Source of the DNA: a virus
Taxonomy: Duplodnaviria > Heunggongvirae > Uroviricota > Caudoviricetes
DNA: 29,804 nt
Virus record (IMG/VR): IMGVR_UViG_2639762982_000016
Coordinates: 1-29,804 of that record
Reading direction: 5' to 3' (one strand)
Part shown: piece after piece, positions 13,118 through 27,716 of the stretch
Position numbering within the stretch: position 1 is the stretch's first letter
How the letters are laid out: each line of letters starts with the position of its first letter
Made by a program: the position numbers and the translations under genes
The notes under the pieces: generated by a model
Told to the model about the DNA's origin: nothing
Databases searched by the model: none
Seen by the model: the letters and a program-made list of their open reading frames with translations, nothing else

Positions 13118-13410
13118 TCCTGTTCACTGGCCTCTTTGGCCATCTTCAAATACTGTTCAGGGCAATGCGCCATAACGCGCTGAAACAGTTCCAGCGCCAG
13201 ATTGCGTTGCCCCTCATTAAATGCCATTGCCATAGCGTCCATCGGTGAGATAGCGGAAAACACACGGCCTTTCTCCAGCACCGACCAGACAACGCGACGC
13301 CCCTGTTCACTGCTCATGACAAAGCGAATGTCATCAATTTCACGCTGCGCCATGTCACGTTGCTTACGGGCGTTTTCTTCTTTCAGTTGATCGTCTTCGT
13401 AATCTGTCAT
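13114..13410 (-). CDS. Hypothetical head-assembly protein (98 aa)
   Basis: ORF track; 4-nt overlaps with portal and scaffold genes. Confidence 0.5.
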   Translation of the reverse strand: MTDYEDDQLKEENARKQRDMAQREIDDIRFVMSSEQGRRVVWSVLEKGRVFSAISPMDAMAMAFNEGQRNLALELFQRVMAHCPEQYLKMAKEASEQE

Positions 13411-15086
13411 TGTGATTGCCCACCCTGACCACTAACTGCATTCGCCATAGCTGACAACACACTCGGATCCGAAGTTTTAGCTTCGCTTAGCGTCTTGGCC
13501 CCCTGTGCCGCCGCCATCCCCATCGCCATCATTTGTTGCTGCTGTTGTTGCTGTGCCCGTTGCTGGCGAGCCTGCTCAACCTGTCCCTGCGGAACAATGA
13601 CGGTTGGAGACACTCCGGACATATCAGCGAATGCATCGATCGCCTGATCAACGTTGAGTTTGTCGAGAGCTTCTGGTTTCGCTTGCGCAAGTTGACCAAT
13701 GAAGTTGACCGTAGACGCCAGACTGGACAGGCCGATAGACTTCTGCGCCTGAGCCATGACGGAAATGTATTCGACCTTCAGGGGCATACCTTCCATCGCG
13801 TCAGGCGGTGGCGGCAGCATGTTTTTACGCACCATCATCGAGAAAGCGCGGTCAATGAGAGGATTAAGACATTCGTCGTTCAGACGCTCCAGAACCGGCC
13901 CCAACATCAGAAGTTTTTCTTCTTTCATTTCGATCACTGCTTCAACAGGCATCGAGCGGGTATTGATGTTCTGCAACATCATGAACAGATCGACAAAGTA
14001 GGCGCTGTTAATGATTTGACGAGTGTCCTGAATGTCTGCTACCAGATCTGCTGTACTGGGGTTAACCAGATAAGCAGGCCTGAAGCCATCCTGACCAGTA
14101 ATCTGATCGATATACGTGATGTCGCCAGGAAGAAGGGAGGCGCGCTGATTCTTGAGGGAAGTCGGAGCAACCATCGGCGGATTGGTGGCTTTATCAATCA
14201 ACTGCGACTTGCGCTTCTGGAGAAGTTGCAATGCCTTAACAGGTCCAAGCGCCAGCATACCCGGGCATGATGATCCATAAACATCTTCGCCATTAACTTC
14301 CCAGCGCGGAGCCATAATTGGAAACTCATCAAATCCGGACTCACGCAACAACTTGTCGTTATCGCCACCAACCTCGTAATAAACCGATTTGAATGGCTTG
14401 TTCTTGCTATCCAGCTTCGATGTATCGCGGTCAATGTTCGGGTAAACCGAATGCATCACTTCAATCCACTTCTCGTAGGTGCCGCTTTCCCACATGCTTT
14501 TTACGTATTCGCTGACGTTATTTAGTCCGAACTCCTGAACAAGCTGACGAACAGTCATAGAGAACTTGCGAAAACAGGTGTCCACACTGCCACGAGGTGA
14601 GTTAGCCAGGTAGTAACTGCCTATCGGGAATGGCATTGTGCGAATGATGTCCTCATCATCCTCCAGCACTGCCATTGCACCAGTGCTGTATGTGCCTAGG
14701 CTTCCGTATAACTGCGGCAGTGACTGATAGAGATTCGACTTATTGAACATATCGTTCATGCGGTTCTGCACCGCCTCAAGCCACAACTTAACAGGGCCAT
14801 AATCCATCATTTCAGGATCTGGCGTAGCCAGGCGAAACCACGGACGCGCGGGGCTTGTGATGCCTGACATCATGCCGCTGGCGAGAGTGCGCGCCGCCAT
14901 AGTCCCGGTAGAATCAATAATGCGTGTATTGCGTCGATCGTTACGGTTGACCTCAGAAGTCAGAAAGCGGGAACCACGCGGGTTGATGTAATCACTCAAC
15001 TCGCGCCAGTGCGGCTCGAACGACTGACGCTCGCTTTCAAGTTGTGCGAACTGTTTGTTCAATCGCTCTTTAGTTGTTTCCGCCAT
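13407..15086 (-). CDS. Portal protein (559 aa)
   Basis: Position between terminase and scaffold/capsid; size; Gln-rich C-terminal tail; RBS GGAG 8 nt upstream of the ATG. Confidence 0.75.
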   Translation of the reverse strand: MAETTKERLNKQFAQLESERQSFEPHWRELSDYINPRGSRFLTSEVNRNDRRNTRIIDSTGTMAARTLASGMMSGITSPARPWFRLATPDPEMMDYGPVKLWLEAVQNRMNDMFNKSNLYQSLPQLYGSLGTYSTGAMAVLEDDEDIIRTMPFPIGSYYLANSPRGSVDTCFRKFSMTVRQLVQEFGLNNVSEYVKSMWESGTYEKWIEVMHSVYPNIDRDTSKLDSKNKPFKSVYYEVGGDNDKLLRESGFDEFPIMAPRWEVNGEDVYGSSCPGMLALGPVKALQLLQKRKSQLIDKATNPPMVAPTSLKNQRASLLPGDITYIDQITGQDGFRPAYLVNPSTADLVADIQDTRQIINSAYFVDLFMMLQNINTRSMPVEAVIEMKEEKLLMLGPVLERLNDECLNPLIDRAFSMMVRKNMLPPPPDAMEGMPLKVEYISVMAQAQKSIGLSSLASTVNFIGQLAQAKPEALDKLNVDQAIDAFADMSGVSPTVIVPQGQVEQARQQRAQQQQQQQMMAMGMAAAQGAKTLSEAKTSDPSVLSAMANAVSGQGGQSQ

Positions 15087-15100
15087 TTCAATGACTCCGG

Positions 15101-15307
15101 TTACTGACCAAGCAGCGTTTTACCGCTGGTATTAGCGGTTGATGTGTCGCCCTGAGAACCGGTAAGCAGCGTAGAACTACGACCAGCAGCAGCGCGACGG
15201 CGACGTGTTTCTTCGTCGCGGGCATCAACAACGGCGGCATCCTGCTCCTGTGGTGCTGCCTGAACTTCTGGTGTTGCAGGCACTGATGGTGAGCTACCCA
15301 TGCACAT
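15101..15307 (-). CDS. Possible small low-complexity protein (68 aa) upstream of the portal gene
   Basis: Has RBS GGAG-TCATTGAT-ATG nearly identical to the portal initiation region; low-complexity composition, so it may not be a real gene. Confidence 0.25.
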   Translation of the reverse strand: MCMGSSPSVPATPEVQAAPQEQDAAVVDARDEETRRRRAAAGRSSTLLTGSQGDTSTANTSGKTLLGQ

Positions 15308-15375
15308 ATCAATGACTCCGTACGCAATTAAATTATTACCAATTTAACCATATATGATTTATTTATCGTAGATAG

Positions 15376-15412
15376 TTGACATTTAACGCACGAATTATTA
15401 CCTTTCAGGTAA
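15376..15412 (+). promoter_or_regulatory. Candidate sigma70 promoter (TTGACA, 17-nt spacer, TACCTT) overlapped by an operator-like palindrome TTACCtttcaGGTAA at 15398-15412
   Basis: Consensus -35 hexamer at 15376-15381; the -10 match is weak (3 of 6); the palindrome matches the motif found in the immunity region. Confidence 0.35.
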
Positions 15413-15734
15413 GTAAAGGGTTCATTCCGGTTACTAACCTGACTGGCTTGTCGTTAAATTGAACAGGTGGAGTGAGCTTTTATTTTGAGCAGTACGGCGT
15501 ATGGCACATGCGCCGATAGCGGTCTGGATACGTTTAAGGGGCACCCTCCCTTGCTCGGGCAAACGAACCAGGTAGCCGGAATGTGCAAGTCGAGCGGTTT
15601 TATTCCGCGCACGGGGATTCACCATCCCGGCGATTCGGTGTGACGCCTCGGAAGAGACGAGGGTACAACGATGAGAGCATTTATGGAGCCGCGACAAAGT
15701 GTGGCGCCTTAACAGGCTAAGTGCTCTCAGCGTT

Positions 15735-15811
15735 GTGGCATTAGCTCAGTCGGACAGAGCAACCGCCTTCTAAGCGGTTGGTCGCAGGTTCGAATCCTGC
15801 ATGCCACGCCA
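15735..15811 (+). tRNA. tRNA-Arg, anticodon UCU (reads AGA), with encoded CCA
   Basis: Hand-folded cloverleaf: 7-bp acceptor stem GTGGCAT/ATGCCAC, D-arm GCTC..GAGC, anticodon stem ACCGC/GCGGT with loop CTTCTAA, T-arm GCAGG-TTCGAAT-CCTGC, discriminator G, then CCA. Resembles but is not identical to the host argU sequence as I recall it. Confidence 0.85.
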
Positions 15812-15854
15812 GAATCACGCCTAAGGACCGTGATGCCAGAAGTTCCAGGTGCTT

Positions 15855-15896
15855 GGCGGTGATGGTTTCCCTTGAAGGACTATCACCGCCCTTTTT
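15855..15896 (+). terminator. Long-loop hairpin (GGCGGTGAT...ATCACCGCC) followed by CTTTTT; possible terminator after the tRNA
   Basis: 9-bp inverted repeat with an 18-nt loop and a T-tract. Confidence 0.35.
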
Positions 15897-15974
15897 ACAG
15901 CAGGACGCCATTGCGATGACTTCATGCTGTAAACCCGTACAGCCACGGAAGGCATAACTCATTGCTTCCAGTTC

Positions 15975-15998
15975 GCCCGGTTCGCCGGGCATTTTTTT
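15975..15998 (+). terminator. Strong intrinsic terminator (GCCCGG-TTCG-CCGGGC plus T7) 12 nt upstream of the next start codon
   Basis: 6-bp GC stem, UUCG tetraloop, seven T residues. Confidence 0.6.
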
Positions 15999-16009
15999 AA
16001 GGTGAGATT

Positions 16010-16381
16010 ATGAACGACCAGCAAATCGAAAAAGAAATCGTTGAGAAAGGCAAAACGGCACCGCGCGTTACGCCAGACCATATCGAAGGCATTATTGCTC
16101 AGGAGGCATATTTCACAGCAGAAGATGGTGCCTTTGGCAAAGCCATAAAAGCGAAACATACTGGCGGAGAGGTAAACTACCAGCCGCACGAATCACTTTC
16201 TCTGCTGACGTTCTGCGTCCTGGTATTGCGCAACGGCTTCACCGTCACCGGAGAGAGTGCCTGTGCAAGTCCGGAAAATTTTGATGCAGAAATTGGTCGG
16301 AAGATTGCCCGGCAGAATGCTGTAAACAAAATCTGGATGCTCGAAGGTTACTTGCTGAAGCAGAAGCTAAGCGAGCAATAA
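16010..16381 (+). CDS. Small phage protein (123 aa), probably Gp49-like (N4 Gp49 / Sf6 gene 66 family); possible accessory (moron) gene
   Basis: RBS AAGGTGAGA; the motif block LTFCVLVLRNGFTVTGESACASPENFDAEIGRKIARQNA matches my recollection of that family; it is oppositely oriented to the flanking late genes. Confidence 0.5.
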   Translation: MNDQQIEKEIVEKGKTAPRVTPDHIEGIIAQEAYFTAEDGAFGKAIKAKHTGGEVNYQPHESLSLLTFCVLVLRNGFTVTGESACASPENFDAEIGRKIARQNAVNKIWMLEGYLLKQKLSEQ

Positions 16382-16384
16382 CAC

Positions 16385-16398
16385 CGTGACATGTCACA
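16385..16398. repeat. 14-bp palindrome CGTGACATGTCACA, copy 1 (downstream of the terminase large and Gp49-like genes)
   Basis: Perfect 12-bp palindrome GTGACATGTCAC with flanking C and A; an identical 14-mer occurs at 18650-18663. Confidence 0.6.
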
Positions 16399-16403
16399 AA
16401 CAG

Positions 16404-16429
16404 CCAGCCGATGAGCTGGCTTTGTTTTA
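16404..16429 (+). terminator. Intrinsic terminator (CCAGC-CGATGA-GCTGG plus CTTTGTTTT) ending the plus-strand cassette
   Basis: Stem-loop plus T-rich tract directly after the 16381 stop. Confidence 0.55.
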
Positions 16430-16471
16430 TCCTCATCAGAGGATATCAACGACATTATCCCCACCAGCGGA

Positions 16472-17947
16472 TTAAGCATACGGGTCATAATCTGTGATGG
16501 CCTTGCCTTGCTGGTTCTGCTGCCCAGGAATTCGCAGACGCTTCGACACAGGGAAAGCAAACGTCAGCAGTAGCGCATCGCCTTTACCCGGCGAACGCCC
16601 AAGTCGCTCTTTGATATCTTCCTTCGGTTCGATAACGATTTTACCGTCCACGCGAACTTTGTACTCTGCCGCCGACAGATCGTCCGCTGTTTCCTGGTCA
16701 TCCAGCATCCCGCCCAACCTCAGCCATGTCTTGCATGAGTTGAACATCTCCCCGCGCTTGTTGAGCATCTGAGGGTCAGTTGACGCACCACCGAACGGAA
16801 CAAGTTGCCATGTACGTCCCCAGCCATCACCGATTGACTTCAAACCGGTTCCGTAACCGAAGTCGATGAATACCGCGTCAGCCTGATACTGGTCTTCAAA
16901 GTCAGCGATGCGCTTCGCCATAATCAGATCGTCGGTGGTCTTGTTGCCAGTCCATAGCACCTTACTATGCAACCCCTGCCGCAGGTATATCACCGCGTCA
17001 TCAACGCCTGAATATGCCGGGTCAACACCGATTATCACCGGTGCATGTGCAACCTGCGCAGCAGTTACCACCCGTTTCATTGCCTCGTCAGTAAGACCGG
17101 TAGGGATAAACTGCAATTCAGATGCATTAGGGAATATGCCGCGCACACGGATTTTAACGAAGTCGCTGTCTTCCCCGTAGTCATCAACCCATTTCTGCAA
17201 TTGCTGCTTGTTAGTACCTTCCACCGTCCGGCTGTCAATCTGCGCAGTTTTCCAGCGGTGTTTATATTTGCGGAAACATTCACGGAATCGCCCGGTATTA
17301 CGCGTCGGGTTTCCGAACGCCACCCAGATAATCTCAGTGTCTTCGTCCGTTAGCGCACCTTCGGCAACTTCCCACACCAGATCCGCAATGTTCGACGCTT
17401 CATCAAACACCACGATGATGCGTTTGCGCTCGTTGTGTAGTCCGGCGAATGCCTCGGTGTTGTGCTCAGACCAGGGTATTGCGTCAGCCCGCCACCGCTT
17501 GTCGTGCCCTAGGTCATTGCTGTACATCGCGGTAGCGGTACAGGTAAACCAGTCTTTCGTGATGGCAAGGTTCGACCACTTGATAATTTCCGGCCAGGTC
17601 TTCGTTCGTAGCTGGTTGTCGGTGTTGGCGGTCACCACGACCTTACAATCCTCGCAAGTGGACATGCCCCAGTTGATCAGCATTGAGATGAATGCTGATT
17701 TACCAATACCGTGACCCGAAGCGCGTGCCAGCATAAGCGGCTGATAGCGCGTCTCTGGATTCTGCAGGTGATCACGTATCTCTCGGAACGCATCGGCTTG
17801 CCACTGACGTGGGCCGGTGGCATGTGCCAGTTCAGTCCCCTCTTCCCCCCACGGGAACGCATAGAGGGCATAGCCAAGCGGATCGTGAGTGAACCCTGCA
17901 ATATCCTCGATCAACTGCTCTTCAGGAGATAACGCTGTATCTGTCAC
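16472..17947 (-). CDS. Terminase large subunit (491 aa)
   Basis: Walker A-like ARASGHGIGKSAF near the N-terminal ATPase region; acidic nuclease-type motifs later; 4-nt overlap with the upstream small subunit gene. Confidence 0.85.
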   Translation of the reverse strand: MTDTALSPEEQLIEDIAGFTHDPLGYALYAFPWGEEGTELAHATGPRQWQADAFREIRDHLQNPETRYQPLMLARASGHGIGKSAFISMLINWGMSTCEDCKVVVTANTDNQLRTKTWPEIIKWSNLAITKDWFTCTATAMYSNDLGHDKRWRADAIPWSEHNTEAFAGLHNERKRIIVVFDEASNIADLVWEVAEGALTDEDTEIIWVAFGNPTRNTGRFRECFRKYKHRWKTAQIDSRTVEGTNKQQLQKWVDDYGEDSDFVKIRVRGIFPNASELQFIPTGLTDEAMKRVVTAAQVAHAPVIIGVDPAYSGVDDAVIYLRQGLHSKVLWTGNKTTDDLIMAKRIADFEDQYQADAVFIDFGYGTGLKSIGDGWGRTWQLVPFGGASTDPQMLNKRGEMFNSCKTWLRLGGMLDDQETADDLSAAEYKVRVDGKIVIEPKEDIKERLGRSPGKGDALLLTFAFPVSKRLRIPGQQNQQGKAITDYDPYA

Positions 17948-18540
17948 TGATTACCATCCTGACGTTCTTTGAGTCGCTTCCTGGCTGCCGCTATGCGATC
18001 AGCAATTGTCACATTCACATTAACATCCAGGCGTTCTTTGAACGCGTTGACGTCGACGTGCTTACCAATCAGTTCGAGGTTCTTCACCTTGTCAGGCCAT
18101 TTAATTTTTTTGAGGATTGTCTCTATCGAATCCTCGTTCATGTTCATGATGGTCGATGACAGATCAAAGCCGCTAAGCGTAGTGCGCCAGATTTTCGGCC
18201 ACTCGCGGATTGGCTTAAGGCTCCCATCGTCGTTGAGGATGTCGATCACGTCCATCTGGTCGATCTCCACCAGGCGCATGAGAACGTAATCAGCACTGAC
18301 GCGCATTCGTTTGTTGCGCTCCTCCATCAACTCGGCAATCCGTTTTTGAATGCGTTCATCGCGCATCATGACACTGGCTTTAACTGCCGCTGTATTTGGG
18401 GAGAATCCTGCGTTAATCGCTGCCTGAGTCTGGTTTTCAGGCGTTTTGATGTATGACTGGCAATAAGCCTCCTGCATTGCTGTGAGCGGCTTAAATTGCG
18501 TTGATTTGCGTTTATAGGTTTTAGGTTCAGCAGGCATCAT
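17944..18540 (-). CDS. Terminase small subunit (about 198 aa)
   Basis: Motif KPLTAMQEAYCQSYIKTPENQTQAAINAGFSPNTAAVKAS resembles small terminase (Terminase_2-type) N-termini. The ORF track extends to 18618 with a TTG start; I prefer ATG at 18540, but the start is uncertain. Confidence 0.65.
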   Translation of the reverse strand: MMPAEPKTYKRKSTQFKPLTAMQEAYCQSYIKTPENQTQAAINAGFSPNTAAVKASVMMRDERIQKRIAELMEERNKRMRVSADYVLMRLVEIDQMDVIDILNDDGSLKPIREWPKIWRTTLSGFDLSSTIMNMNEDSIETILKKIKWPDKVKNLELIGKHVDVNAFKERLDVNVNVTIADRIAAARKRLKERQDGNQ

Positions 18541-18579
18541 AACCACCGTGGTAATAGTTACCGTTGTGGTAATAGTACC

Positions 18580-18607
18580 ATGCAAAATAAAGCCGCCATA
18601 GTTGGCG
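18580..18607 (-). terminator. Intrinsic terminator-like hairpin (GCCGCCA-ACTA-TGGCGGC plus TTTATTTTG) just upstream of the terminase small gene
   Basis: 7-bp GC-rich stem followed by a U-rich tract on the minus strand. Confidence 0.45.
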
Positions 18608-18649
18608 GCAGTATTCAAAACCCGTCAAATTCATCATGCATAATCTAAT

Positions 18650-18663
18650 CGTGACATGTCACA
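18650..18663. repeat. 14-bp palindrome CGTGACATGTCACA, copy 2 (upstream of the terminase small gene, at the 3' end of the 115-aa ORF)
   Basis: Identical to the 14-mer at 16385-16398. Confidence 0.6.
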
Positions 18664-19006
18664 CTATTAATTTCGTTTCATGCCAGCCTTTAGTCACCCA
18701 GCATTGCGAGTCACCATTACACGGGCATGAATTAACTGGAACTCTCTCGCCGCACTTACCGCAACGTTTTCTGCTGATCGATTTTATACGCCCGCGCACA
18801 CGTGCATCATCCTGGCGGATCAGCAGCGCGATGTACTCGGCCATTTCATAGGGATCGCGACCAGGGCGCCGGGCGGCGCAGTTCCGCGCCAGCATTTCCT
18901 GCTCCTGCTTATCCAGCACCAGTTCAATTTTGCGCTCACCGGCGGCGGACTGCCGAGCGCGCTGCGCGGCTTTGCGTTCTGCGGGGGATTTAGCCACGAA
19001 TCGCAC
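18659..19006 (-). CDS. Hypothetical basic, Cys-rich protein (115 aa)
   Basis: ORF track; C-terminal RKRCGKCGERVPVNSCPCNGDSQC could be a zinc-binding cluster; function unknown. Confidence 0.45.
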   Translation of the reverse strand: MRFVAKSPAERKAAQRARQSAAGERKIELVLDKQEQEMLARNCAARRPGRDPYEMAEYIALLIRQDDARVRGRIKSISRKRCGKCGERVPVNSCPCNGDSQCWVTKGWHETKLIV

Positions 19007-19112
19007 TCCACGCCAGATTGATTAATGACTCCCAGGTAATATAAACCCGGATACCAGCAGCCAGGCCGAAACCAATCACCATGGCATAAAGCAGAGCGTT
19101 GCACTTGTTCAT
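18990..19112 (-). CDS. Putative 40-aa single-pass membrane peptide
   Basis: Internal ATG 19112-19110 preceded by AGGAGGT and overlapping the upstream stop (TGATG); hydrophobic core LLYAMVIGFGLAAGI. The longer 65-aa reading in the ORF track is probably an artefact. Confidence 0.35.
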   Translation of the reverse strand: MNKCNALLYAMVIGFGLAAGIRVYITWESLINLAWSAIRG

Positions 19113-19741
19113 CACTTCACCTCCTGCGGCGGTTCTGGTAGCGGCATCCAGTGTGATGGTATCCACGACGCACCAGGTACTACCCACCCATCATTAGCGT
19201 CAGGATGCCCCGGGATGTAAGTCGCCCATTTCATTCGCCAGTCACCTTTCCTGTCAAACTCCCTGGCAACAAGAACGGCTGTTTTGGTATCCGGCATTCG
19301 CTCACTACAGCTTATCCAACCATCCGTAGTTACCGGAGAGTTGCCCGATATCTGGTTCAACTTGTAAGTTTGGCTTACAGGTTCGGCTTTCAGTTCTGCA
19401 ATGCGCTGTTTTGCGGCATCCAGTTCAATCGACAATTTTTCCAACTGCTCTTGATGCTTCTTGTATTCCTGATATGCGTGCCAAGACTGACCTTTGCGCA
19501 CACTATCAGTGATATCAGTAATCTGTTCTGGTGTTAGCGTGGTCAGTGGCTGTGATGGGAAAATAAGCACTTTCCCGGAATCCCAATCAAAACCAGCGTG
19601 AATTGACTGAACCTCAACTGAAGGTGTTGAACCAATGCTGCCAGGCGAATGAACAACGATTGTTACATCCATATCGCGACGATGGCTGTGGTTGTTGGAC
19701 AAAATACGATTCACCAACTCAGAAAATTTGGAAAATTTCAT
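19112..19741 (-). CDS. DUF551-domain phage protein (209 aa)
   Basis: C-terminal WISCSERMPD...VLV...GWVVPG...SHWMPLPEPP pattern matches the DUF551 family as I recall it. Confidence 0.6.
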   Translation of the reverse strand: MKFSKFSELVNRILSNNHSHRRDMDVTIVVHSPGSIGSTPSVEVQSIHAGFDWDSGKVLIFPSQPLTTLTPEQITDITDSVRKGQSWHAYQEYKKHQEQLEKLSIELDAAKQRIAELKAEPVSQTYKLNQISGNSPVTTDGWISCSERMPDTKTAVLVAREFDRKGDWRMKWATYIPGHPDANDGWVVPGASWIPSHWMPLPEPPQEVK

Positions 19742-23569: not shown

Positions 23570-23687
23570 TCTGGTTACTATCTTCAATTTTTCCGCCCCT
23601 TTTTGTTATTGATATTGGCTATTTTGCACAATTGGAAAATTTGATCAACCGGATTTGGTTTTTTATTACCTTTGAGGTACGAATAGA

Positions 23688-23713
23688 TATGAAAAGACCG
23701 CCGGGTGGCGGTC
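23688..23713 (-). terminator. Terminator between the Cro-like gene and the early-right genes (tR1-like position)
   Basis: Minus strand reads GACCGCC-ACCC-GGCGGTC followed by TTTTCATA. Confidence 0.5.
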
Positions 23714-23735
23714 TACAGAGGGTTGTAGCTGGATA

Positions 23736-24120: not shown

Positions 24121-24705
24121 ATGAAAAGTATCCAGGACGTCCGCAGGCAAAATCTCAACGACTTGATCGACCGTGAATTCAATGGTGTTCAGACGCGGAT
24201 GGCAGAAAAACTTGGAACTCAGGCAAATCTGGTAAACCGCTGGGCTCTTGGCAAGAAGGTTATCGGCGACCAGGTTGCGCGAAAAATTGAAGCTGCCGCC
24301 AATAAACCCCGTAACTGGCTTGATATCGATCGCTCGCTTTCTCAGGAAGGTTTTCAGCCTGTCGGCCCAAGCGACATTGGTCAGCTGGCGGCTCACAACC
24401 TGGAACGCTGGATGAGCGAAAGCCGCGACCTTTCAACACAGGGAAAACTTCACCGCGCATCCGGCGTCGCCCAGGTGACAATCAGCCGCCTGTTAAACAA
24501 TGAGGTCAGCGTTTCCATTTCCACCCTGGAGAATGTTGCATCCGCATTCGGGCGTCACGGCTATGAATTACTGATTCACCCGCACGACCCTGCGACCATC
24601 AACTATGACCGCTCGCGCTACGCATTGTTACCCGAAACCGAGAAAGCAAAGATCGAAAGTTACATTGAATTTGTCATCAACCAGAACGAAAAAAACAAAC
24701 AATAA
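24121..24705 (+). CDS. Immunity repressor candidate with two HTH domains and no recognisable S24 peptidase domain (194 aa)
   Basis: Divergent from the Cro-like gene; HTH-like segments at about residues 25-45 and 110-135; no Ser/Lys autocleavage motifs seen; followed by a terminator. Confidence 0.6.
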   Translation: MKSIQDVRRQNLNDLIDREFNGVQTRMAEKLGTQANLVNRWALGKKVIGDQVARKIEAAANKPRNWLDIDRSLSQEGFQPVGPSDIGQLAAHNLERWMSESRDLSTQGKLHRASGVAQVTISRLLNNEVSVSISTLENVASAFGRHGYELLIHPHDPATINYDRSRYALLPETEKAKIESYIEFVINQNEKNKQ

Positions 24706-24726
24706 AATCATATTTTTCAGTAAGTA

Positions 24727-24750
24727 AGCCGCCTTCTGGCGGCTTTTTTA
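24727..24750 (+). terminator. Intrinsic terminator after the repressor gene (AGCCGCC-TTCT-GGCGGCT plus T6)
   Basis: Perfect 7-bp stem and a T-tract. Confidence 0.65.
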
Positions 24751-24762
24751 TTGCCTGCACAA

Positions 24763-24839
24763 TTACCTTAAGGGTAATTTTTTTAACTCATATCTATTGA
24801 CACCAAACCAAATACGCATAATCATTACCTCAACGGTAA
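24763..24839 (+). promoter_or_regulatory. OL/PL-like region: two perfect TTACC-N5-GGTAA sites (24763-24777, 24825-24839) flanking a TTGACA -35 hexamer (24797-24802)
   Basis: TTACCttaagGGTAA and TTACCtcaacGGTAA; the -10 candidate AATCAT at 17-nt spacing abuts the second site. Confidence 0.5.
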
Positions 24840-27416: not shown

Positions 27417-27716
27417 GTGAGAAAGTTAAGCCGACTTGAAAAATATCACATGAACAAAGTTTCAATGCGCAGCCATTCAAAGGTTGTTGCCGTTACTCCT
27501 GCGGCGATAGAGATCGAAAAACGCGCGATTGAAAGAGAGAAAAAAGGGCAGTTCCGCATTGCCGCCCACCTTTGGCTTCAGTGTATGGATGTTGCTTCTG
27601 GTGATGTTGAGCGTGCAAGGATCGCGGTTCGCAGGGACCAATGTATCACAAAAGGTAACGGCCTTCGCCGTGGCGACTATAGCGGCATAGGATGTTGTGG
27701 GGTGGTTTATGACTAA
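27417..27716 (+). CDS. Hypothetical protein (99 aa)
   Basis: ORF track; start uncertain. Confidence 0.4.
   Translation: MRKLSRLEKYHMNKVSMRSHSKVVAVTPAAIEIEKRAIEREKKGQFRIAAHLWLQCMDVASGDVERARIAVRRDQCITKGNGLRRGDYSGIGCCGVVYD

Follow-up and report, generated by a model that had tools for sequence, protein, structure and literature searches.

Uetakeviruses are temperate podophages like Salmonella phage epsilon15 and Escherichia coli phage phiV10, and the records of these two phages already mark transcription terminators and, for epsilon15, repressor binding sites. The RefSeq record of epsilon15 (NC_004775.2) has a rho-independent terminator at 39646-39672, just after gp49 ("transcriptional regulator"), and another at 2559-2582, directly 5′ of an Sf6-gp66-like gene. 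It also has repressor binding sites at 12-27, between the terminator and terS, and at 2931-2947, 5′ of gp3, and it marks both repressor and IHF sites at the gp3 promoter region. In the phiV10 record (NC_007804.2), terminators follow terL, P, and the genes for the repressor, the cro-like protein, and the regulator. Here we consider the corresponding elements in IMG/VR record IMGVR_UViG_2639762982_000016 (positions 1 to 29,804, the whole stretch of DNA that we analysed, which we call the window): hairpin 1, which precedes a Gp49-like gene, and hairpin 2, which precedes the small terminase gene terS. Neither published record marks a promoter for terS or addresses the expression of the gene behind hairpin 1.

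The window is the genome or prophage of a Uetakevirus. Its 15400-19200 region is 94-96% identical to phiV10, the O157 typing phages 9 and 10, vB_EcoP_ZX5, and others, and about 81% identical to epsilon15. The homologous elements lie in equivalent places: one stem-loop follows the gp49-type regulator gene and precedes terS (in phiV10, it is annotated at the end of the record), another lies 5′ of the Sf6-gp66-like gene (the epsilon15 terminator at 2559-2582 is the equivalent of hairpin 1), and there are repressor sites 5′ of terS and of gp3. Epsilon15 gp49 itself is a homologue of a 115-amino-acid (aa) protein of the window. Unlike epsilon15, the window has a tRNA-Arg gene and an intact terminator behind it (hairpin A), both of which epsilon15 has lost, and the stem of hairpin 1 differs between the two at two compensated pairs. 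The observation of the hairpins is already known from the annotation of epsilon15 and phiV10, where they were marked years ago, and as such it matters little. What we can add is a testable picture of the start of the Uetakevirus late genes, which would involve an extended −10 under direct repressor control and not Q-type antitermination; a placement of the Gp49-like gene in the Acb4 family, which counters the cyclic-oligonucleotide-based antiphage signalling system (CBASS); and the description of a slot in which unrelated genes share one leader, terminator, and ribosome binding site (RBS). This slot could aid the finding of anti-defence genes and the engineering of phiV10-type reporter phages.

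The layout around terS is like that of the Q/PR′/tR′ module of phage lambda: a small regulatory gene ends the early-right operon and is followed by a terminator and then by the late genes. The window differs in that we found no Q homologue, nor any conserved promoter between the regulator gene and the terminator. Also, the terminator is dispensable in some relatives, and a promoter-like element and operators lie downstream of it. Partial terminators are known inside bacterial operons too, before dnaG in rpsU-dnaG-rpoD and before rpoB in rplKAJL-rpoBC. As at these attenuators, where read-through is passive and partial, the unit that holds the Gp49-like gene has an intrinsic terminator directly before an expressed gene. 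In contrast, the window has two tandem terminators behind a tRNA and a swappable accessory gene downstream, and the read-through is a prediction. Finally, phage morons (the concept of Hendrix and Juhala) are accessory genes with their own promoter and terminator between essential genes. The two variable slots that flank terS-terL resemble them, as conserved sequence and a terminator delimit each slot, and many of the versions bring a promoter of their own (LexA- or repressor-controlled). The Gp49-like gene of the window, in contrast, has no promoter and borrows the RBS of the leader.

Our overall reading, which we give a probability of roughly 55%, is that the phage is divided into several transcription units, of which the early-left operon and terS are the clearest cases. 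Such a unit would start at a promoter with an operator of the form TTACC-N5-GGTAA, and a one-way intrinsic terminator would insulate it from the unit upstream. Hairpin 2 would end the early-right operon and would also close a gene-insertion slot behind the regulator gene. The terS-terL genes would be transcribed from their own extended −10 (18580-18572), which has no recognisable −35; this promoter would be repressed in the lysogen and may need an activator in lytic growth, a PerC-family protein being one candidate. A tRNA-Arg/leader unit would end in two terminators in tandem, with hairpin 1 as the second, and this unit is probably transcribed from a repressor-controlled promoter that diverges from the gp3 promoter and runs antisense to the late genes. 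The Gp49-like gene, which we call the cargo, sits on the leader's RBS behind the U run and would be transcribed only by polymerases that escape both terminators. Such attenuation would set the expression of the cargo low relative to the tRNA and would keep antisense transcription out of terL. The anatomy, conservation, and one-way nature of the hairpins, the distribution of the operators, and the lack of N or Q homologues among the early proteins scanned are what we observe; the activity of the promoters and the passive nature of the read-through are what we infer. We lean slightly towards seeing nothing more here than the ordinary scheme of terminator-insulated, repressor-controlled transcription units.

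Two conserved hairpins with the anatomy of one-way terminators

An initial annotation of the window had placed a strong terminator right before the Gp49-like gene and a terminator-like hairpin about 40 nucleotides (nt) before terS, and we find both.

15975-15998, plus strand: hairpin 1 (also hairpin B), a 6-bp GC stem with a UUCG loop, then A and U7, directly before the RBS AAGGTGAG
18584-18609, minus strand: hairpin 2, a 7-bp stem (6 GC pairs) with the tail UUUAUUUU, at the end of the early-right operon

Each has a GC-rich stem-loop and a U-rich tract on the transcribed strand, which is the anatomy of an intrinsic terminator. The stem of hairpin 1 is GCCCGG/CCGGGC (15975-15980 and 15985-15990), the A and T7 occupy 15991-15998, and the ATG of the cargo gene at 16010 comes 11 nt beyond the T run. 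Hairpin 2 reads GCCGCCA-ACUA-UGGCGGC (18609-18592), followed by TTTATTTT (18591-18584), and the ATG of terS is 43-46 nt further on. Hairpin 2 has a folding energy of −16.2 kcal/mol (z = −3.9), which none of 200 shuffled sequences reaches. Hairpin 1 folds with −12.7 kcal/mol, and its z score of −1.4 on a 48-nt window is not exceptional by itself. Because a generic scan for terminators found no overall enrichment in the window (27 found versus 19.3 ± 5.0 expected), the case for the two hairpins rests on their conservation.

We compared the terS region across 86 related loci (13 from GenBank phages and the rest from IMG/VR contigs) and the leader that ends in hairpin 1 across 83 loci, with 35 phage records having the leader. 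Hairpin 1 and its T run are kept in 81 of the 83 leaders. In the Salmonella lineage the stem has become GCCCAC/GUGGGC, with two compensated pairs (GC to AU and GC to CG), so that the structure is maintained over the sequence. These compensatory changes are present in 10 of the 81 loci and probably stem from one event in that lineage. Hairpin 2 and its tail are kept in 81 of the 86 loci; its stem is invariant among them, which makes it uninformative about the conservation of structure. Citrobacter phage Omnitron has an unrelated strong terminator in the equivalent position after its regulator gene. On the opposite strand, neither hairpin has a T run, so these are one-way signals. Together, the anatomy and the comparison argue that both hairpins are real, conserved one-way transcription stop signals.

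Two aspects of hairpin 1 were absent from the initial annotation: it and the Gp49-like gene point in the opposite direction to the late genes, and upstream of it lie the tRNA-Arg gene (15735-15811) and a first terminator (15855-15899). As an aside, at one locus (L045, IMGVR_UViG_2778261087_000001) the loop of hairpin 1 is inverted, as if flipped, with GCCCGG-CGAA-CCGGGC rather than -TTCG- in the middle.

A candidate promoter between hairpin 2 and terS

When we looked in silico for promoters downstream of the hairpins, we found a candidate extended −10 between hairpin 2 and terS. The features that bear on it are these.

17944-18537, minus strand: terS (Terminase_2), with its ATG at 18537 or 18540
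16472-17947, minus strand: terL
18572-18580, minus strand: candidate extended −10 (P_terS), TGgTACTAT, whose final T also begins the proximal operator
18572-18558 and 18554-18540, minus strand: terS-proximal repressor operators TTACCACAACGGTAA and TTACCACGGTGGTTA, from a motif search; the epsilon15 equivalent is annotated at 12-27
24121-24705: repressor gene
24726-24839, plus strand: early-left reference module, with a terminator (24726-24745), an operator (24763-77), TTGACA-17-AATCAT (24797-24825), and an operator (24825-39), then the early-left operon
27417-27716, plus strand: PerC-family activator gene (PF06069), in the early-left operon

The operator motif TTACC-N5-GGTAA is found at 10 sites in the window (15398, 18540, 18558, 21702, 21764, 23666, 24003, 24051, 24763, and 24825), versus 0.55 expected. 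Two exact or near-exact sites, plus a degenerate third that we saw by eye, lie between the cro-like and repressor genes. Two others are 5′ of the early-left operon, two are at 21.7 kb, one follows the cro-like gene's terminator, one is 5′ of gp3, and two lie between hairpin 2 and the ATG of terS. Both at the early-left promoter and at 21.7 kb, the centres of the paired sites are 62 bp apart, which would suit a DNA-looping tetrameric repressor; according to the discussion in PMC9638917, the repressor of the related phage SPC32H is reported to bind palindromic sites as a tetramer.

In the early-left promoter, the −10 and the operator share one base, the T that ends the former and begins the latter, and the terS element has the identical register. 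The pattern TGn-TAnnAT-TACC is present in 86 of 86 loci, and almost all variation falls at the n positions: the element occurs as TGGTACTAT, TGTTACTAT, TGATACTAT, TGGTATTAT, TGATAGTAT, and TGTTAGTAT, plus one TGGTGCTAT and one TGTTACCAT. Two variants, TGCTAT and TACCAT, each seen at a single locus, alter a fixed base. The TG and T6 are present at every locus and A2 at 85 of the 86, as in the sequence of an extended −10. This type of flank is not shared by the other nine operators in the window. Hairpin 2 is absent from 5 of the 86 loci, and all five have the terS element. We infer from this pattern that terS most likely has its own repressor-controlled extended −10 promoter. And because P_terS overlaps the first of two operators, it would be shut off in the lysogen.

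Two more observations concern this region. The product of the PerC-family gene (30.2 bits against a cut-off of 22.6) is a candidate activator of a promoter that has no −35, and we speculate that it could make the terS promoter late. Also, across the adjacent operators (18537-18583, minus strand), the predicted 5′ untranslated region of terS can fold into a long imperfect hairpin that buries the Shine-Dalgarno sequence GGUGG and the AUG; this hairpin may be a by-product of the operators or a form of translational control.

A gene-insertion slot closed by hairpin 2

In Klebsiella and Enterobacter relatives, there is a gene between hairpin 2 and a palindrome at the end of the regulator gene. The inserted gene has a TTGACT promoter with a canonical LexA box (TACTGT-N8-ACAGTA), and in several relatives its product appears UmuD/S24-like. 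About 20 E. coli loci have a different inserted gene, whose RBS abuts the palindrome. With either insert, hairpin 2 keeps its place on the terS side, beside the terS element. Because the hairpin follows the inserted LexA-box gene in these relatives, it would terminate upstream transcription. Five relatives with the LexA-box gene have no hairpin 2, and in these SOS-induced transcription would run into terS.

L004 4335-4800, L005 4335-4720, L007, L048, L054, L057, L077, and L083: loci with the inserted LexA-box gene
18610-18649, minus strand: spacer of the window, a candidate remnant of an insert, with an AGATT..GCATGAT promoter remnant and a GATGAATTTGA 3′-end remnant, by comparison with L005 and with class C loci

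The 40-nt spacer of the window looks like what remained after the deletion of an inserted gene.

The leader and the cargo slot behind hairpin 1

The minus-strand late genes come in the order 112/115-aa protein gene, terS, terL, a plus-strand island, gp3, and portal.

15735-15811 and 16010-16381, plus strand: the island within the late genes, consisting of a tRNA-Arg(UCU) gene and a PF13876 gene
15735-15811, plus strand: tRNA-Arg (anticodon UCU), opposite to the late genes
15812-16009, plus strand: conserved non-coding leader of about 200 nt, with invariant CGCCATTGCGATGAC and GCTGTAAACCC, ending in hairpin 1 and the RBS
15855-15899, plus strand: hairpin A, the first terminator after the tRNA, a 14-bp stem and then CUUUUUAC (−22.8 kcal/mol, z = −3.3)
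16010-16381, plus strand: cargo gene, PF13876 (N4 gp49 / Sf6 gp66), Pfam E = 8.6e-35, 119.5 bits against a cut-off of 27
16385-16429, plus strand: second copy of the palindrome CGTGACATGTCACA (16385-16398), then a terminator (16402-16421) with TTGTTTTATC, which closes the cargo unit
15376-15412, plus strand: candidate promoter for the tRNA, leader, and cargo, TTGACA (15376-81)-17-TACCTT (15399-15404), overlapping the operator at 15398-15412
15354-15382, minus strand: candidate late-strand promoter for gp3 and portal, ATGTCA-17-AATCAT
15101-15307, minus strand: gp3
13407-15086, minus strand: portal

The tRNA-Arg gene is present in 7 of the 12 relatives that we checked, on the same strand each time. 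(The record of phiv142-3, MN187550.1, puts a 69-nt tRNA-Arg on the late-gene strand; at L011 6856-6932, ARAGORN instead predicts a 77-nt tRNA-Arg(UCU) on the other strand, as in the rest of the relatives.) Plus-strand transcription most likely starts from the candidate promoter TTGACA-17-TACCTT: in 85 of 86 loci, TTGAC(A/C/T) stands exactly 17 nt from TACC(T/C)T, although the sequence of the spacer varies. For gp3, nnGTCA-17-AATCAT is found in 76 of 86 loci.

The leader has a constant order: a small hairpin, hairpin A, an invariant core from CGCCATTGCGATGAC to GCTGTAAACCC, and hairpin 1. The arms of hairpin A differ by lineage (GATGG/CTATC, GGCAG/CTGACC, or ACCAG/CTGGT), and CGCCATTGCGATGAC is flanked by invariant TTTACA and TGTAAACCC. 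An Rfam scan of 15250-18750 at E ≤ 1 returned the tRNA and nothing for the leader, and inspection of the leader by eye for sigma-70, sigma-54, and RfaH-ops-like motifs found nothing convincing. We also considered that the leader might be conserved as a coding sequence, the open reading frame (ORF) PhiV10p04 (15741-15992, minus strand), and rejected this: the frame is antisense to the tRNA, a 5-nt indel relative to epsilon15 breaks it, and the substitutions are non-synonymous. The 83-aa ORF annotated at this place in phiV10, TL-2011b, and BUCT554 is probably spurious.

The PF13876 family has been equated with Acb4, an anti-CBASS sponge (bioRxiv 10.1101/2025.07.12.664507). By its strong match to this family, the Gp49-like cargo gene is assigned to the Acb4 family; its protein matches the solved Acb4 structure 9e4w weakly, with E = 0.006 over 43 residues.

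What follows hairpin 1 varies among the relatives. In 63 of 81 loci (class 1, which includes the window, where the cargo is fused directly behind hairpin 1), AAGGTGAnAnnATG (15999-16012 in the window) comes directly after the T run, and 18 different N-termini, from at least 10 unrelated ORFs, are attached to this common RBS and start codon. In 17 other loci (class 2), a promoter-like xTGACx-17-TAnnAT with an operator in its spacer comes directly after hairpin 1, and there hairpin 1 would act as an insulator before an independent cargo promoter. So the slot behind hairpin 1 looks like a conserved plug-in site for accessory, probably anti-defence, genes.

There is no space for a promoter in the 11 nt between the T run and the ATG, and no promoter is conserved in the leader, so the cargo gene needs polymerases that pass two terminators. 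The most likely route, if an unproven one, is passive and partial read-through, that is, attenuation; a passive leak and a dedicated antiterminator explain the expression of the cargo equally well on present evidence. The initial annotation had argued that terminators immediately upstream of these two genes imply antitermination. For terS, which has a conserved promoter-like element before it in 86 of 86 loci, this is not supported, and for the cargo gene what survives is that read-through is needed.

The hairpin at 16402-16421 is annotated in phiV10 as the terminator after terL. All three plus-strand terminators lack a T run in the late direction and are transparent to late transcription, and they would keep plus-strand transcription from colliding with the late operon.

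The regulator gene, its palindrome, and the search for an antiterminator

The initial annotation had recognised no Q-like or N-like antiterminator and had suggested two candidates for one, namely a Cys-rich 115-aa protein and the 50-aa product of the first gene of the early-left operon.

18659-18997, minus strand: gene for the Cys-rich regulator-like protein (112 aa, or 115 aa from a GTG at 19006), phrog_536, the last gene of the early-right operon
18650-18663: palindrome CGTGACATGTCACA, overlapping the stop codon of the regulator gene

The first part stands: when we scanned the early proteins against Pfam, NCBIfam, and PDB, none matched an N or Q family. The candidates fare less well. The 50-aa protein (phrog_898, with no function assigned in PHROGs) has just 2 Arg and no arginine-rich motif. 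The 115-aa protein, which is 112 aa long in most of its 738 homologues, belongs to a PHROG that is labelled "transcriptional regulator", and it has no match among Pfam, NCBIfam, and PDB profiles, including those of the Q families. Its AlphaFold2 model, with a predicted local distance difference test (pLDDT) score of 68, shows three helices and, at the C-terminus, a small cluster of Cys residues; this is compatible with a ribbon-helix-helix fold, which cannot be demonstrated from the model. Foldseek found no significant fold match for the model, a weak negative given the pLDDT of 68. Because the protein is Cys-rich and encoded beside terS, we also considered an HK97-type HNH endonuclease; we found no HNH motif and no family match.

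In every phage with the regulator gene, a perfect palindrome, TGTGACATGTCAC (also TGTGACATGTCACA; in general (C/T)GTGACATGTCAC(A/G)), overlaps or follows the stop codon. The pair of gene and palindrome is found in Uetakeviruses and in ZF40, Chlobot, and Omnitron; in the last three it lies away from the late genes, and ZF40 has a separate Q-like gene. The 112-aa protein is probably a DNA-binding protein with its own site, and we found nothing that ties it to antitermination. The two copies of the palindrome in the window (18650-18663 and 16385-16398) bracket terS-terL, and the half-sites resemble those of CRP but have a 4-bp spacing. We rejected the palindrome as a class I or class II activator site for the terS promoter, as its distance to the −10 varies (−73.5 in epsilon15, −91.5 in the window, and hundreds of nt where there are inserts). 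Finally, boxA-like motifs are at chance level in the window, with none near the early promoters, and boxB was not the subject of a systematic search.

Weighing the alternatives

Several observations speak against our overall reading. P_terS has no recognisable −35 (the sequence is TATGGC), so it could be weak or factor-dependent, and phiv142-3 has TGCTAT, in which the critical −11A is lost. A single TGnTAnnnT is common by chance, and the promoters here are predicted from sequence rather than mapped. The second promoter that we compared for its register (21744-21716, TTGATT-17-TTTAAT) also lacks the −11A and has a poor −10. Behind the cro-like gene's terminator there is no evident promoter, which implies that some read-through is needed elsewhere, in the early-right operon. 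The leader between the two terminators (15891-15974, 85 nt) holds the 15 invariant bases CGCCATTGCGATGAC, and neither a promoter nor an ORF, a well-supported structure, or an Rfam match explains their conservation. And an anti-defence sponge would be expected in quantity, which is a poor fit with expression only through two terminators.

One alternative is that a processive antiterminator of the phage, either the 112-aa protein at its palindrome or another early protein, lets transcription pass hairpin 2 into terS-terL, as well as hairpins A and B into the cargo gene, as Q and N do in lambda. The regulator gene is in Q's position, last in the early-right operon and immediately before the late genes; in the window, the promoter-like GTGACA-18-CATGAT shares bases with the palindrome and lies about 17 nt ahead of hairpin 2; and the cargo gene, like whatever is transcribed behind the cro-like gene's terminator, has no promoter of its own. 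But GTGACA-18-CATGAT is not conserved, and we rejected it as an analogue of PR′: at that place, 20 or more loci have an RBS and ATG within 10 nt of the palindrome, and others have the LexA-controlled promoter. Furthermore, the second copy of the palindrome precedes a terminator whose read-through would yield only antisense terL RNA, hairpin 2 is missing in five relatives, the gene-palindrome pair occurs away from late genes in Chlobot, Omnitron, and ZF40, the last of which has a Q-like gene of its own, and neither Q/N similarity nor, in the 50-aa protein, an Arg-rich motif is to be found. We consider this quite unlikely. Alternatively, terS might have no promoter of its own and depend on partial read-through of hairpin 2, the operators being repressor roadblocks like the stoperators of mycobacteriophage L5 and TGnTAnnAT being conserved for some other cause. 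The lack of a −35, the loss of the −11A in one relative, and the scatter of operators over several intergenic sites would all fit, as would the five relatives without hairpin 2, in which an upstream SOS gene runs straight into terS. Nevertheless, this seems unlikely to us: the TG, T1, A2, A5, and T6 are each conserved in 84-86 of 86 loci while the bases between them vary, which is the pattern of an extended −10, and the flanks of the other nine operators differ. Hairpin 2, with its 7-bp GC stem and good U tail, should terminate efficiently, and the early-right promoter is itself repressed in the lysogen, so there would be little to block.

For the cargo, the alternative is that the leader (15891-15998) is a cis-acting regulatory RNA, either a put-like element or an attenuator that senses a ligand, a protein, or an RNA, with hairpin 1 as the expression platform. 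The leader is kept in 83 loci with its 15 invariant bases, even in relatives whose tRNA has been lost, its terminator abuts an RBS that serves at least 10 unrelated cargo ORFs, and there is no evident sigma-70 promoter inside the leader. On the other hand, we see no competing, antiterminator-type pairing for either arm of hairpin 1. The Salmonella lineage has not kept the central stem, covariation is limited to one pair, and in the conserved blocks it is the sequence that is preserved and not the structure. In 17 loci with an independent promoter after the element, its role can be only that of a terminator. As for a put-like RNA, the leader is conserved, its stems are poorly supported by covariation, and it is unmatched in Rfam, which may or may not include a put model. 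We regard a regulatory RNA as very unlikely. A related and broader idea is that in Uetakeviruses the whole cassette of leader, terminator, and RBS (15812-16009) serves as a dedicated, regulated socket into which anti-defence genes can be exchanged; its invariant core would be bound by a phage or host factor, or would fold as a sensor, and so control read-through of hairpin 1. If so, then expression of the Acb4 sponge or another cargo would begin only at a certain stage or in response to a certain signal, but we think that this is improbable. So we prefer terminator-insulated units, with a promoter of its own for terS and a passive leak for the cargo.

Another terminator in the window

The terminator after the cro-like gene (23695-23714, minus strand) has an 8-bp stem and a weak UUUCAUAUCU tail, and a degenerate operator (23666-23680) follows it. 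This is the only site within the early-right operon at which read-through clearly seems to be required, much as at tR1 of lambda.

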